Below, one piece after another: positions 1,756 to 6,597 of a DNA stretch of 6,597 nucleotides. The stretch is from Thermotogota bacterium (GTDB lineage Bacteria > Bipolaricaulota > Bipolaricaulia > UBA7950 > UBA9294): assembly GCA_039679545.1 (NCBI GenBank), contig JBDKUT010000029.1, positions 1 through 6,597 on the forward strand, read 5' to 3'. Position numbers: made by a program. Every line of letters begins with the position of its first letter. Within the stretch, counting starts at the first letter, position 1.

Positions 1756-4700
1756 TGAACCGACCCTCCTCGACCTGTCCCCCGACGCACTTGCGCGAAC
1801 GCTCGAGGCCCTCGGCCATCCGGCCTACCGCGCCCAACAGGTCGAGACCGCCGTTTTCCACAACCTGGCAGCGTCGTACGAGGAGATCACGACGCTCCCC
1901 GCCGCCCTCCGCCGCGACCTCGCCGCACGCATTCCTTTCACCGTCTGCGATCCGATCGACTCCACGGAGTCTCCCGACGGCGAGACTCGCAAGACGCTCT
2001 TTCGGCTCTTCGACGGCGAGACCATCGAGTCGGTCACCATGGCCTACCCGGACCGGTTCACGGCCTGCGTGTCCTCCCAGGTGGGCTGCGCGGTGGGTTG
2101 TCCTTTCTGCGCTTCCGGGCAGGGCGGGTGGGTGCGCGACCTCTCCCCCGGCGAGATCGTGGCCCAGGTTCTTCACGCGGCTCGCGCCGCGTCCGACGCG
2201 GACCGTCGCCTGACGAACGTCGTCTACATGGGAATGGGCGAGCCCTTCTCGAACTACGACGCCGTCCTCTCGTCGATTCGCATCCTGAATGACCCGAGGG
2301 CCTTTGGCCTCGGCGCGCGGGCGTTCACGCTCTCGACGGCCGGTGACGTTCCCGGGATCCGCCGGCTTGCCGGAGAATCCCTTCAAGCCAACCTCGCCGT
2401 TTCGCTGCACGCCGGGAACGATGCGCTTCGGAATTCGCTCATCCCCCTCAACCGCCGATATCCGCTCGACGAACTCCTCGAAGCATGCCGAGCCTACACC
2501 AAGGCCACCCACCGTCGGGTCACGTTCGAGATCGCGCTGATCGACGGCGTGAACGACGGGCGGCGCCACGCCACTGAGGTCGCCGAGCGACTCCGCGGTC
2601 TCCTCTGCCACGTCAACCTGATCCCGTGGAATCCGGTCTCGCATCGAAGATGGCGGCGAAGCGCCGCCGCGGCCGTGGAGACGTACCGTGAGGTTCTCAT
2701 GAAGGCGGGAATCGCGACGACCGTGCGGGACAGCCGAGGGGTGGAGATCCAAGCCGGGTGCGGGCAGCTTCGATCGCGCCACGAGGAGGGTTCGATCACT
2801 CGCTGAGCAAGCCCTTGTACATCTCGAGCGCTCGTTCTCCCCAGCGCTCGCTGACCCGGTTCATGCCTTCCTGAACCAATTGCCTTGCCCGCTCGCGGCT
2901 CACCTTCATGATCCGACCGACGTCAGCGAAGTTGTACGGGCATCCGTCCTCGATGCCATAGTGGAGTCGGATCGCGAACGCTTGCCGTGCCGGCAATCCG
3001 GCCAGCACGCCCTCGAGCTCGTCGCGGAACAGGAGCCGGAGCGCTTCCTGCTCGAGCGAGAGTCCGCTCTCGTCGGCGATGCGCTCCTCCAGTGGTTCTT
3101 CGCTGTCTCCGGAAGCGACGACCCGATCGAGGGAGACCATCTCGTTGACCTGGGTCTCGACCTGCCGCAAGCGGTCGACGGACAGCCCGAGCACCTCGCT
3201 GACCTCGGTCTCGTCGATCACGTCTTGCTCCGCCATCGATCGGATTTGCGCCATCCGCCGAACGGCGCGGAAGAGGTAGTCGGGGATGCGGATCATGCGC
3301 GTGTAGTCGCCGATCGCGGCGAGCATCGCACGCCGGATCCACCACGCCGCGTACGTGCTCAGCCGATAGCCACGCTCTGGATCGAACCGATCGACCGCCT
3401 CGATCAGACCGATGTTTCCCTCCTGGATGAGATCGATGAGCGGCATTCCTGTGTCGGCGTACTCCTGGGCGATCTTGGCGACCAAGCGCAGGTTCGAGAC
3501 GATCAACCGATCCCGCGCACCGTCGACGCCCGCCGCCATCTCCCGCGCGACCTTCTGTTCCTCCTCGCGGGAAAGGACGGGGAACCGCGCGATGTCTCGG
3601 AAGTAGATCGTCAGCACGGACGGGCCGGACGATTCCCGTTCCGCCCCAACCTCAAGGTCTTCCCGTTCTTCGGCCATATCTTTCTCCGGCACTCTACGCC
3701 ATGCCGCCGTCCTCGTCCATGGAAGCGTCCTCCCCGTCAGGGAATTCGCTCGATGTAATGCGCATTACGTCGAGCGCGGTCACCACCGCCGAGCCCCCCA
3801 GAACCTCCGCCAAGCTCGGGTGCGTCCGCCCCTCGTCTCCCGAGACGAGCTCCTTGACGTAGAGGCCGCCGTCGGTCACGAGCTCAAGCTCTGCCTCCCT
3901 CGGCCCTGTCATGCGGCCGCGGATCTCGTGCAGCCGACGCTCCCGAACGAGATCGGCGCGCCGGTGCGCCACGCGTCGAGGAGTCCGTTGCCGGATGATG
4001 CCAACGAGACTCTCGAGTGCCTGCCCAAGCGCGGACTCCTCGATCGGTCCGCCGAACGCCACGCGGGCAACGTAGCGCTTCGTGGCGCGCGTCTCTTTCA
4101 CCTGCGCCACGGCTTCTCGGCCCGTCCAGTGCAGTTCCGAGATCTCCACACGCCCGGCCGCCTCACGCGCGAGAACCTCTCTGAGCGCGCCCAGGTCGAG
4201 CGATCGGACTTGTGGGGCCACGATCTCAAGCACAAACGGACGTCCGGTCCCGAGCATCCGCGCGTCGATGTCCTCCCGCCCTGCTCCGTGGAGGTGGGCT
4301 CCCTTCGCCCGTGCCGCCTCCACGAACGGGCGAGCCACGATCTCCTCGACCGATTCCGCGTACTGTTTGCCCGTCCCTCCGCACGCTTCGCACCCGCGCC
4401 CGCCGCAGCGGCGGCACGGCCAGTGCGTCTGCGGGATTCCTCGAACGAGCTTCCGGTATCGGCCGTAGAGAAAGAGCGAGGCCACCCTCACCGTCACTTC
4501 ACGTCTTCCGAGGTCCACGGTGAACGCGACGTGGGGGTTGCGGAAGTCGACCGTTCCGCGGCCCACAAGCGCTTCGAACGCCTTCCCCACACAACGGTTG
4601 AACGCGTGCCTCAGCGGCTCCGCGGTGCCCGTGGGAAACCGCTCCAGAAAGTACGCCTCGACCTCGACCAACCTCGGCGTCGGCCGCATGCCAAACAGGT

Positions 4701-6597
4701 AGGTATCGAACTCGATTCCCGCCGCGCGTTCAGCGGCCCGTCGCGCCCACTCCTCGACCTCGCCGAACAGGCCGCCGCACACCCAGCACGTGCCCCCGGG
4801 ACCATCGGCTTCAGCAGGCGCAAGGAGGGATCGAAGGGCTCGCCCGCGATCGGCGTTCGACATCCCCCGGCCGAGCTGGCCGAACGCCCCCCCGAGGCAC
4901 GCGTCGCAGATCGGACCGGCGGCAGCGATCTCACGAGCCGCTGGCAGCACACTCTGCGCGTTGAAACGCCCGTCGCTCATCGGCCCATCCCGAAGTCACG
5001 GTAGAGGATCATGGTCCGATCTTCGCGAATGAACCCGACGGACGCCAAGTCTTCGGCCGCGGAGGTATCGCTCACGGCCGCCCCGTCCCACGTTTCGACA
5101 CGAACCGCGGCGCGCTGCCCTGCGTGCCGTACGAGTTCGGCAAGAAGAGAGAAGGCGGATCGTCGCCCCGTGGCATCGAGGTCGACGAGAGGCACCAGGC
5201 GCGCGCCGTGCGCCTCGACCGCCACGATCGGCGCGCCCGCCCGGAAGACGACGTAGTTGCCGGGGAGCCGTCGCACGGCATAGCGGTCTCCGTTCGGTCG
5301 TACGATCGGGAATGCCTCTCCGCACAGGTTGGCCGGGTCGCATGCTCCCAACAGGACGGGGTCATCCTCGCCTCGCTCCGCGGCGAGTTCCGCGCCGGCG
5401 CCCGTCGCGGCGAACTGCGGTCCCGAAAGGCCCGACACGAAAACCCCGCGATCCACTTCGCCCCGCCACTCCATCCGCGACAGAAGTCCGTAGGCTTCGC
5501 TCCACCGCACTCCGACGGGATCCCGCTCGAGAGTCTCGCGGCACAGCACCTGAGTCCGCGAGAGAGCCAGCCGCAGCAGCCGGACGACATCCCCCTCGCT
5601 GCGCTTCGCAGGGTCAGCGACAACCGACCACCGCCCCGCCACGGCAGGACGGACCCCCGTCCGGGTCGGCGTCGTCACGGGTTTGGGACGAGGGCGGACC
5701 GTCGCAACAAGCGAATCGTTCGTGACGCGACCGAGCCACGTCAGCTCCCACAGCGCCTCGTCGACCTTCCACACCGCTTCTCCGAGCGCCGTGGCAATCG
5801 TCGTGAGGAATGACGCCCCCTGAGCGCGAAGGGCTTCGAGAACACGGCCGGCGAGATCGGACGGCACGGCCGACATCGGTGCGGGCAACAGGAGCGCCGC
5901 CACTTCCGGCCTGGAGAACGCGACGCTCCGGGTTCCGCCGGATCGAACTCCACGCCACACGATTCCGCCGGATCGCACGAGGGTTTCCAGGTCGCTCGTG
6001 CGGAAGCCAGTCACCCGCGCTCGCAACACTTCGTGCCAAAGCGGCATCGGGAGCACCCACCCGGCGAGCTGGTCGAGGACCTCGCGCAGCCCTTCCGTAC
6101 CCGCCGTCGGTACCGTGACGTGCTGTCGCCGCAGTACGGCGGCGGACAGCCGCTCGGGAGAGACGGGGGCGGGCTCCCTTCGCCGCACCGCGAGCGTCAG
6201 CCGCCGCATCCCGAGAAGAACGTCACGGTCAACAAACGCCCCCGGCCGTCCCGGGAGGTCGGCCGCCACGATCCGCCCCGACGCCACCGCGGCCTCGAGG
6301 GCCGAGGCCGCGGCCACCTCCGCTCCAGGGAAGCGCCCGAGCACCTCGTCTTCTGTTCGGCCGGCATGCCCTTCGACATACCGACTGAGCAGGCTCCGAA
6401 TCCCCTCGGCCTCCTCTTTTTCAACCAGCGACACGTCTTCCGCACAGACAAGGAGGTTTTCGCCGGGTCCCGAAATGGCAACGATCCGTCCGCTCTCCCG
6501 AAGGATCGGCACGGCGGCCGCCGCCCCGGGCTCGCACCGTTCGCTCAACTCGGACTCCGTCAGACCGCCGAGCCGGCGGAGCAGCTCGACAGCCTCT

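Follow-up and report, generated by a model that had tools for sequence, protein, structure and literature searches.

Archaeal-type Pus10 and TrmY in a bacterium with no recognizable TruB: a predicted archaeal route to tRNA T-loop modification in the Bipolaricaulota

Both TruB and its product Psi55 are taken to be nearly universal among Bacteria. How, then, might the tRNA T-loop be modified in a member of the Bipolaricaulota, a reportedly deep-branching bacterial phylum, when its genome yields no TruB and carries what appears to be an archaeal enzyme instead? The gene that raises this question, pus10, lies in a window of 6,597 nt, the whole stretch of DNA analyzed here, which is an entire contig (G000:C29) of a MAG with 163 contigs, 93.55% completeness, and an estimated contamination of 3.62%. 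In the parts of two reviews, from 2021 and 2025, that bear on its distribution, Pus10 is given as absent from Bacteria (PMC7912444, PMC12710931).

Within the window, pus10 is tightly arranged in the order lhr-pus10-sigma70, beside genes for RlmN and LigA. The survey's finding had placed it among bacterial genes, and the following features bear this out.

1..1758, plus strand: LigA, NAD-dependent DNA ligase, a bacterial hallmark serving as context (NF005932, 718 bits, profile 99-664 of 664); its 5' end is cut off by the contig edge
1724..2806, plus strand: RlmN, a bacterial rRNA/tRNA methyltransferase serving as context (TIGR00048, 373.5 bits against a cut-off of 290)
2796..3692, minus strand: sigma-70 family factor (Pfam Sigma70 r1_2, r2, and r4), GTG start
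3694..4980, minus strand: pus10, archaeal-type tRNA pseudouridine(54/55) synthase, an ORF of 428 amino acids with an ATG start and a TAG stop
4977..6596, minus strand: C-terminal part of an Lhr-type helicase (PF23234 WH4_Lhr, 61.9 bits; NF007284, 84 bits, under its cut-off); its 5' end lies off the contig

We confirmed that the pus10 ORF encodes a genuine, intact, full-length archaeal-type Pus10, as had been claimed. It scores 465.4 bits against the TIGR01213 equivalog (COG1258; cut-off of 200), with residues 15-408 covering profile positions 3-401 of 402, and it has the expected architecture of an N-terminal Cys4 region, a THUMP domain, and a C-terminal pseudouridine synthase domain. Its parts, all on the minus strand, are as follows.

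4774..4938, minus strand: N-terminal Cys4 region, residues ~15-69, with Cys25, Cys28, Cys65, and Cys68 in invariant columns
4513..4749, minus strand: THUMP domain, residues 78-156 (PF22023 Pus10_THUMP_arc, 65.8 bits, profile 1-78 of 78)
3757..4473, minus strand: pseudouridine synthase catalytic domain, residues 170-408 (PF21238 Pus10_C, 213.5 bits, profile 1-231 of 232)
4360..4434, minus strand: forefinger-loop region, a CxxC...CxxC knuckle PQTHWPCRRCGGRGCEACGGTGKQY with Cys189, 192, 197, and 200, from the translation and invariant columns
4264..4281, minus strand: catalytic motif GREDID, residues 234-239 (Arg235, catalytic Asp237, Asp239), from the translation
3958..3966, minus strand: thumb-loop His339-Arg340-Arg341, from the translation and invariant columns

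The GREDID motif aligned with GREDVD of human PUS10, and its columns are invariant in 165 Pus10 sequences. The columns of Cys25, 28, 65, and 68 likewise show no variation among the Pus10s compared, 79 of them archaeal and 86 from Bipolaricaulota, and this region is presumed to be a zinc site. More broadly, of the columns conserved to 95% or more in both the 79 archaeal Pus10s and 69 further Bipolaricaulota Pus10s, the window protein retains 71 out of 71, among them GREDxD, Tyr303, His339-Arg340, Lys376, Leu403, and both Cys4 clusters. As far as the available text of Joardar et al. 2013 goes, such residues are linked to the Psi54 and Psi55 activities of Pus10, their equivalents in the window protein being assigned by offset only (PMC3753934). 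The same portion of that paper describes a forefinger region required for the Psi54 activity of M. jannaschii Pus10, for which the CxxC...CxxC region would be, by position, the counterpart of the ffl1/ffl2 segments, and a thumb-loop His376/Arg377 "hook," onto which His339-Arg340 maps by a constant offset rather than by alignment to the M. jannaschii sequence. The AF2 model of the window protein (pLDDT 89) found human PUS10 (2V9K) as its top PDB match over the full length, with an E value of 5.3e-30 and a TMq of 0.76; the second-best match reached a TMq of 0.39.

The reported TrmY homologue was recovered on another contig of the same genome (C80:2-775, minus strand), where it scores 169.7 bits against PF04013 and 200.5 bits against the NF002560 equivalog, whose cut-off is 183. 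The latter match spans profile positions 1-197 of 200, which is the whole SPOUT domain, although the ORF runs off the contig at its 3' end. In family f1, to which this genome belongs, TrmY has an extra C-terminal domain of ~80 amino acids that is weakly DUF2007-like. We predict that this protein is a SAM-dependent Psi54 N1-methyltransferase.

The usual bacterial T-loop enzymes could not be found in this genome, in agreement with the survey's claim that TruB, TrmA, and TrmFO are lacking. A search for TruB_N (PF01509, covering TruB and Cbf5) returned no match at an E value of 10 or below, while all 14 of 14 control genomes were detected, archaeal Cbf5 included; downstream of rbfA, where truB usually lies, there are other genes instead. 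The best match to TrmFO (TIGR00137) was 59 bits against a cut-off of 428.65, and that to the TrmA/RlmD U5-methyltransferase family (PF05958) was 13.2 bits against a cut-off of 23. Neither TruA, at an E value of 0.001 or below, nor TruD, at 1e-5 or below, had a match in the genome. The only other pseudouridine synthases in it are one RluD-like and one RsuA/RluB-like protein, both of the rRNA type. With TruB, TruA, and the U5-methyltransferases missing, Pus10 appears to be the sole recognizable tRNA-dedicated pseudouridine synthase in this bacterium and its family; TruD occurs in 25 of 184 phylum genomes, in families f3 and f11. Trm56 was not found in the genome and TrmI gave nothing above its cut-off, and "archaeal-type" here refers to Pus10 and TrmY only. 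The prospective substrate is canonical: of 51 ARAGORN tRNA calls, 48 contain G53-UUCRANN-C61, and the remaining 3 are over-long and dubious.

Because the genome has Pus10 together with TrmY in place of the usual bacterial Psi55 enzyme, the tRNA elbow is probably modified in the archaeal way. Our preferred reading, to which we assign a probability of about 0.75, is that Pus10 is functional, was acquired once from an archaeon, and fills the role of TruB, after which TrmY would make m1Psi54. This reading builds on the identity and intactness of the gene, its catalytic and specificity residues, the predicted fold, the gene context, the pattern of presence and absence, and single-clan trees. The ancestor of the sampled Bipolaricaulota would have gained pus10 in one event, followed by vertical descent. 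Pus10 would most likely isomerize U55, and also U54, in the T-loop of all tRNAs, taking over the job of the TruB that the phylum is without, and TrmY would methylate Psi54 to m1Psi54, in place of the bacterial m5U54 that comes from TrmA or TrmFO. We infer these enzymatic activities and modified positions, Psi55 and m1Psi54 made as in archaea, from orthology, the catalytic and specificity residues, and the co-occurrence of the two genes.

To place this genome in its phylum, we reran the counts on 184 Bipolaricaulota genomes (121 in the survey), 71 of them of high quality, and the reported pattern persisted in the larger set. Pus10_C was detected in 168 of the 184 and in all 71 high-quality genomes, so that none of the 16 without it is of high quality, and TrmY was found in 144 of 184 (66 of 71 high-quality). 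TrmFO was restricted to a single genus, g26 (9 of its 11 genomes and 9/184 overall). As the survey had noted, TrmY is missing from this TrmFO-bearing genus (0/11); the gap proved wider than described, however, as it extends to family f6 (0/19). Pus10 persists in both clades, in 10/11 and 18/19 genomes, respectively, and in both it shows changes at otherwise invariant positions. In g26 these are substitutions only (P183A and Y207A), and the full-length Cys knuckle is kept.

These clades bear directly on an alternative in which Pus10 forms Psi54 only, as the substrate of TrmY, with U55 left unmodified or handled by an RluD-like protein or an unrecognized synthase. Pus10 and TrmY do co-occur tightly in the phylum, and the window protein keeps the forefinger region and Tyr303, which are described in the accessible part of PMC3753934 as important for Psi54 in M. 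jannaschii Pus10; the main cellular role of human PUS10 is also given as Psi54 in the relevant section of PMC7912444. Nevertheless, f6 keeps Pus10 without TrmY, and g26 does so where TrmFO would make m5U54, which suggests a role for Pus10 beyond Psi54. Moreover, the Pus10s of M. jannaschii and P. furiosus both form Psi55, according to the portions of PMC7912444 and PMC3753934 that treat them, and no other tRNA-type pseudouridine synthase was found in the genome. We therefore regard a Psi54-only enzyme as unlikely.

It is quite improbable that Pus10 is instead kept for another substrate, such as rRNA, tmRNA, or some other RNA, or as a noncatalytic tRNA chaperone. Pseudouridine synthases are very few in the phylum, and TruB is described as a tRNA chaperone besides being a Psi55 synthase in the pertinent part of PMC7912444. 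Set against this, all catalytic and tRNA-binding features of Pus10 (THUMP, thumb, forefinger, and GREDxD) are invariant, the T-loops are canonical, and TrmY, which requires Psi54 in tRNA, co-occurs.

That a TruB is present but was missed, either because its gene was not assembled or because it has diverged beyond the reach of the TruB_N model, is less probable still and can be given very little weight. The MAG is incomplete and fragmented, but TruB_N was above its cut-off in 0/184 phylum genomes, and since single-contig genomes with 96% and 99% completeness are among them, an assembly gap does not explain why TruB is missing. Only two weak matches below the cut-off were seen, one of which (L011) proved on inspection to be an RluD-like protein; the performance of the model in the controls and the other genes found at the usual truB site also argue against a missed TruB. 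PF05958 was detected in 1/184 genomes.

The origin of the gene can be approached through its neighbors and its relatives. The stop codon of lhr overlaps the start codon of pus10 (ATGA), and the GTG of the sigma-70 gene lies one base past the pus10 stop, leaving a 1-nt spacer. Of 32 named loci from Bipolaricaulota, 20 have a sigma-70 factor next to Pus10 as part of an lhr-pus10-sigma70 block, compared with 0 of 48 archaeal loci. The GC3 of pus10 is 0.80 and that of neighboring genes is 0.81-0.82, and its GC content matches as well. The closest named archaeal Pus10s are from the Methanomicrobiales, at 45-50% identity, and the archaeal loci returned span 44-50%; the 44% identities previously given for Methanothrix Pus10 and for Haloarcula/Haloferax TrmY were not reproduced. 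Mis-binned or chimerically assembled archaeal DNA, for which one could cite the estimated contamination and the methanogens as closest relatives outside the phylum, is scarcely credible: contamination is excluded because the gene sits in a conserved bacterial block, overlapping or abutting bacterial genes, and has a composition like that of its neighbors, and Pus10 moreover occurs in every high-quality genome of the phylum, where it forms its own clan.

In the Pus10 tree, one starred branch (SH-aLRT 97) separates 45 of 46 archaeal rows from the full set of 60 Bipolaricaulota rows, with which a single long-branch archaeal row is placed. In the unconstrained tree, an archaeal row, L168, falls with family f6 (unstarred, support 91), and holding the 60 Bipolaricaulota rows together gave a log-likelihood higher by 13.9 (p-AU 0.72). 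In the TrmY tree, a branch with support 85 sets the 31 Bipolaricaulota rows apart. Pus10 and TrmY thus each form one single Bipolaricaulota clan that follows the families of the phylum, and the Pus10 clan joins near the base of an archaeal sample that is made up entirely of Halobacteriota. Among 71 sampled Halobacteriota genomes, 28 have trmY directly upstream of pus10, an arrangement consistent with joint transfer of the two genes. Because trmY and pus10 are never adjacent in Bipolaricaulota among the places listed (at the closest, 11-15 kb separate them, in three genomes of f11), co-transfer is at most suggested, and pus10 may have arrived as part of a trmY-pus10 pair.

A wider scenario, which we hold tentatively and at slightly less than an even chance, is a phylum-wide archaeal-type elbow: a trmY-pus10 pair would have come from a Halobacteriota-like donor before the radiation of the phylum, with TruB, TruA, and all U5-methyltransferases missing and position 54 retuned later. 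One genus would have regained TrmFO, lost TrmY, and acquired substitutions in the Pus10 forefinger region, and one family would have lost TrmY without replacement.

Both genes are already correctly named by the NCBI and JGI pipelines and are ordinary members of known families, so what is new is a biological reading and not a new kind of system. The single-clan Pus10 and TrmY trees, the Halobacteriota trmY-pus10 adjacency, and the changes at invariant positions in TrmY-less clades are the new observations. In a whole bacterial phylum, the archaeal pair appears to have taken the place of both enzymes of the T-loop, and the phylum appears to do without TruA too. If true, this would be a clean, phylum-wide nonorthologous displacement via interdomain transfer in the core translation apparatus; archaeal Pus10 and TrmY would be able to service a complete bacterial tRNA set, and the natural variants (g26 with TrmFO, f6 without TrmY) would amount to a natural experiment on Psi54 versus Psi55 specificity. 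As reported in the available portion of a preprint, the phylum now has a first pure culture (10.1101/2025.11.21.689855), and the prediction is therefore directly testable by tRNA mass spectrometry.

Among known systems, bacterial TruB (E. coli, T. maritima) presumably shares the product, tRNA Psi55, and the T-arm substrate, but it is absent from this genome and from 184/184 phylum genomes. It belongs to an unrelated pseudouridine synthase family without a forefinger loop, in which His, not Arg, replaces the flipped base, as stated in the part of PMC3753934 that compares them. For archaeal TrmY (M. jannaschii, Haloferax volcanii), the gene on C80 passes the equivalog cut-off across the SPOUT domain; it differs in its additional C-terminal domain and in not being adjacent to pus10, unlike the gene in 28/71 Halobacteriota genomes. 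The Pus10 of P. furiosus forms Psi55 only, has a shortened forefinger loop, and comes from an organism that uses m5U54. It thus offers a precedent for a pure Psi55 role where U54 is methylated, to which the TrmFO-bearing genus g26 is a parallel. The forefinger deletion of P. furiosus Pus10, as described in the available text of PMC3753934, contrasts with the two substitutions and intact knuckle of g26 Pus10. Unlike P. furiosus Pus10, the window protein has a long forefinger. Human PUS10 (PDB 2V9K) is, to our knowledge, the only solved relative; its catalytic domain aligns at an E value of 1e-28 and the model superposes on it in full, but identity in the structural alignment is 21%, the CxxC...CxxC forefinger insert is missing, and the human enzyme coexists with TRUB1/2. 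A further counterpart is M. jannaschii Pus10, reportedly identified by Gurha and Gupta in 2008 as a dual tRNA Psi54/Psi55 synthase. The two share TIGR01213 membership, the Zn-ribbon/THUMP/catalytic architecture, GREDxD, the Tyr, thumb His-Arg, Lys, and Leu residues (equivalent by offset only), a long Cys-containing forefinger region, and a TrmY partner, whereas here the host and its tRNAs are bacterial, it has no Cbf5, Trm56, or TrmI, and the gene lies in an lhr-pus10-sigma70 block.

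The pus10 product is orthologous to archaeal Pus10, and its partner, encoded elsewhere in the genome, is orthologous to TrmY. Against TIGR01213, the Pus10 equivalog of NCBIfam, the Pus10 protein scored 465.4 bits (cut-off 200), covering positions 3 to 401 of the 402-position profile, and it contained the Pfam domains Pus10_THUMP_arc (residues 78 to 156) and Pus10_C (residues 170 to 408). Its catalytic domain was matched to that of human PUS10 (2V9K; E = 1e-28), with GREDID aligned to GREDVD. When an AlphaFold2 model built from a 32-row alignment (mean pLDDT 89, pTM 0.82) was compared to structures in the PDB, human PUS10 was the top match, along the entire length (E = 5.3e-30, TMq = 0.76), and TruA was the runner-up (TMq = 0.39). 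Among the best 120 of 7379 matches in a homologous-protein search, identity to the window protein was 54 to 90%, and those carrying an organism name were all labelled Bipolaricaulota. The closest archaeal Pus10 proteins, from Methanomicrobiales, Methanocellales, Methanophagales, and relatives, were 44 to 50% identical.

Residue conservation was assessed in an alignment of 165 distinct Pus10 sequences, of which 79 are archaeal and 86, including that of the window, come from Bipolaricaulota. The window protein retains all 71 columns whose conservation reaches at least 95% both in the archaeal rows and in the 69 Bipolaricaulota rows outside genus g26 and family f6. These include Cys25/28/65/68, the CxxC...CxxC knuckle of the forefinger (Cys189/192/197/200), the catalytic Arg235-Glu-Asp237-x-Asp239, Tyr303, His339-Arg340, Lys376, and Leu403. 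Judged by a constant offset of 36 to 38 rather than from the M. jannaschii sequence itself, the equivalents in MjPus10 would be Arg273, Asp275, Asp277, Tyr339, His376/Arg377, Lys413, and Leu440. Joardar et al. 2013 (PMC3753934) tested these residues in the M. jannaschii enzyme: the forefinger loop, the Arg, and the Tyr are needed for Psi54, and the Asp and the Leu are required for both the Psi54 and Psi55 activities. The forefinger knuckle is missing from four aligned proteins, namely, L133 (genome G110, family f2), L120 (G069, f6), and the archaeal L164 and L165; such knuckle-less proteins may be natural Psi55-only variants.

The features of the window (which is a complete contig with five genes) and two features on other contigs of the genome are as follows.

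1-1758, plus strand: LigA, 5' truncated at the contig edge (profile begins at 99/664)
1724-2806, plus strand: RlmN
2796-3692, minus strand: sigma-70 family factor, GTG start
3694-4980, minus strand: pus10, 428 aa, ATG start, TAG stop
4977-6596, minus strand: C-terminal part of an Lhr-type helicase
C80:2-775, minus strand: TrmY
C149:3760-4425 (L192), minus strand: 221-aa ORF directly 3' of rbfA, with no Pfam or NCBIfam family

TrmY was identified by PF04013 (170 bits) and by the equivalog NF002560 (200.5 bits; cut-off 183). Its ORF is open at the 3' end, where it reaches the edge of contig C80, and a cluster of six tRNA genes lies within 1.6 kb after it. Family f1, to which this genome belongs, has a TrmY C-terminal extension of about 80 aa past the SPOUT domain (here C80:2-214, minus strand; also L194:932-1171, plus strand): 79 to 87 residues follow the domain in 6/6 f1 loci and 3 to 23 residues in 24 loci of other families. 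The extension weakly resembles DUF2007/PF09413 (20 bits, under the cut-off of 25.7).

Searches of this genome for the usual bacterial enzymes were negative. There was no TruB_N match at E ≤ 10, a profile that was positive in all 14 control genomes, archaeal Cbf5 included; the best TrmFO score was 59 bits (cut-off 428.65), and the best score for the U5-methyltransferase family was 13 bits (cut-off 23). The usual place of truB is filled by other genes: infB, DUF503, rbfA, the 221-aa ORF, formate-tetrahydrofolate ligase, and a CCA-adding/poly(A) polymerase-type gene. Besides Pus10, the genome yielded just two pseudouridine synthases, one RluD-like (TIGR00005, 256.6 bits) and one RsuA/RluB-like, with no match to TruA (PF01416) or TruD. 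The survey's finding of an archaeal-type Pus10 and TrmY in a bacterium without TruB, TrmA, or TrmFO is confirmed. A wholesale archaeal T-loop set was rejected, since Trm56 had no match and TrmI had none above cut-off.

A T-loop of the form G53-UUCRANN-C61 was present in 48 of 51 ARAGORN tRNA calls. The other three (C21:28593-28687, C105:23308-23396, and C134:5827-5919) are 89 to 95 nt long without a canonical T-loop, one has a four-base anticodon, and they are probably false positives. Parallel sets of Thr-GGT, Tyr-GTA, and Thr-TGT tRNAs that differ in sequence occur at C60:10020-10321 and C138:407-4331; real duplication, strain heterogeneity, or the MAG's estimated 3.6% contamination could account for them.

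We then counted matches over cut-off in 184 Bipolaricaulota genomes, 71 of which are high-quality.

Profile matches across Bipolaricaulota
TruB_N: 0/184
Pus10_C: 168/184; 71/71 high-quality; 52/54 genera; single-contig genomes of 96% and 99% completeness among them
TrmY: 144/184; 66/71 high-quality; family f6 0/19; genus g26 0/11
TrmFO: 9/184, all in g26 (9/11)
PF05958 (TrmA/RlmD type): 1/184, a partial match in a 70%-complete MAG

The phylum pattern reported by the survey, with TruB_N absent, Pus10 and TrmY common, and TrmFO confined to one genus, was reproduced on this larger set, and family f6 is added as a second lineage without TrmY. Two TruB_N matches fell below cut-off (17 to 20 bits), and the one examined (L011) is an S4 and RluD-like protein, not TruB. 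Because the PF05958 family is missing, RlmD-type 23S rRNA m5U methyltransferases also seem to be missing from the phylum. TruA was found in 2/184 genomes, both times marginally (27 to 28 bits) inside frames of more than 1000 aa, and in 13/14 controls; the phylum may lack Psi38-40, or another enzyme may make it. TruD (PF01142) is patchy (25/184; f3 20/50, f11 5/9, f1 0/73), and two of its matches are interrupted by an in-frame stop, TGA in one and TAG in the other. Some Pus10-bearing MAGs labelled 'Thermotogae' by their submitters were considered as a second bacterial phylum and rejected, as their rows fall inside Bipolaricaulota families in the tree described below; TruB_N was found in 0/5 of those tested, and the Thermotoga maritima control was positive.

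Collectively, these comparisons suggest, with a probability of about 0.75, that in this bacterium Psi55 (and Psi54) is made by Pus10 and m1Psi54 by TrmY. The main rival, a Psi54-only role for Pus10, appears unlikely. Genus g26, with its predicted bacterial-type U54 methylation, keeps Pus10 in 10/11 genomes; this argues for a need for Pus10 beyond Psi54, most simply for Psi55. Within the limits of sequence analysis, the survey's interpretation that the T-loop is modified in the archaeal way is supported. What makes this reading interesting is that an archaeal enzyme would have displaced TruB across a whole phylum, which is testable now that a pure culture of the phylum has been reported (strain J31; preprint 10.1101/2025.11.21.689855). 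NCBI and JGI already annotate Pus10 and TrmY by name in Bipolaricaulota MAGs. Reviews of 2021 and 2025 (PMC7912444, PMC12710931) describe Pus10 as absent from Bacteria, and among the papers listed in a search of the openly accessible literature none reported Pus10 in Bipolaricaulota/Acetothermia or in bacteria.

Gene junctions, synteny, and composition led us to reject contamination or mis-binning as the source of pus10. The source MAG (2.35 Mb in 163 contigs) is 93.55% complete with 3.62% contamination. The helicase stop shares bases with the pus10 ATG in an ATGA overlap, and a single base separates the pus10 TAG from the GTG of the sigma factor; thus, helicase, pus10, and sigma-70 are packed as one unit. 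A query for sequencing runs listed no RNA data set containing the window. On the other strand, the end of LigA and the start of RlmN overlap by 35 bases, and no tRNA genes were found within the window. Pus10 adjoins sigma-70 in 20/32 named Bipolaricaulota loci versus 0/48 archaeal loci, and other neighbours in the same 32 loci are the helicase (13), RlmN (16), and LigA (16). pus10 has a GC content of 0.687 and a GC3 of 0.797; its neighbours have a GC3 of 0.81 to 0.82, and the mean GC across the contigs is 0.651 ± 0.013.

To place these proteins, we built a Pus10 tree (IQ-TREE, LG+C20 PMSF, quick search) from the 165 sequences minus one truncated row, thinned of near-identical sequences (≥78% identity within Bipolaricaulota, ≥80% within archaea) to 106 rows. 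A supported branch (SH-aLRT 97) separates 45 of 46 archaeal rows from all 60 Bipolaricaulota rows. The sole exception, the long-branched archaeal L168, joins the long f6 branch with a support of 91, not marked as supported. Constraining the 60 Bipolaricaulota rows together gave a log-likelihood 13.9 above that of the free search (p-AU = 0.72). Families f1, f2, f3, f6, f9, and f10 each group, and f8 and f11 fall with f7 in one supported clade. All archaeal rows belong to a single GTDB phylum, Halobacteriota; a record labelled Methanobacteriota falls in the phylum of Methanoculleus. The TrmY tree had 65 rows, two partial rows having been removed and the archaeal ones thinned at 75% identity. In it, a branch with a support of 85 sets the 31 Bipolaricaulota rows apart from the rest, and together with three Halobacteriota rows they lie in a supported clade (95).

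In a sample of 71 Halobacteriota genomes (from G189-G262), Pus10 was present in all 71 and a TrmY match in 60. In 28 of the genomes, pus10 is immediately preceded by a trmY on its own strand, in one case by a TrmY fragment only. Genome G237 has two short TrmY fragments alone upstream of an intact pus10, and its trmY looks like a decaying gene. No such adjacency occurs among the Pus10 and TrmY places listed for Bipolaricaulota, where the nearest case is three f11 genomes with the two genes on one strand at a distance of 11 to 15 kb. A possible history that fits these data is one acquisition of the trmY-pus10 pair, whose genes later separated.

The two lineages without TrmY carry changes in Pus10 at otherwise invariant columns, where five other groups have 0 or 1. 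In f6, the substitutions M242C and P248E and a gap at G246 closely follow the catalytic motif. In g26, P183A and Y207A are clade-wide and both in the forefinger region, and E252T is found in 3/5 rows. As a natural experiment on Pus10, these substitutions are suggestive only, because each clade represents a single evolutionary event. A forefinger deletion has been described for P. furiosus Pus10; a similar deletion was sought in the TrmFO-bearing g26 and was not found; g26 Pus10 shows only the two substitutions there.
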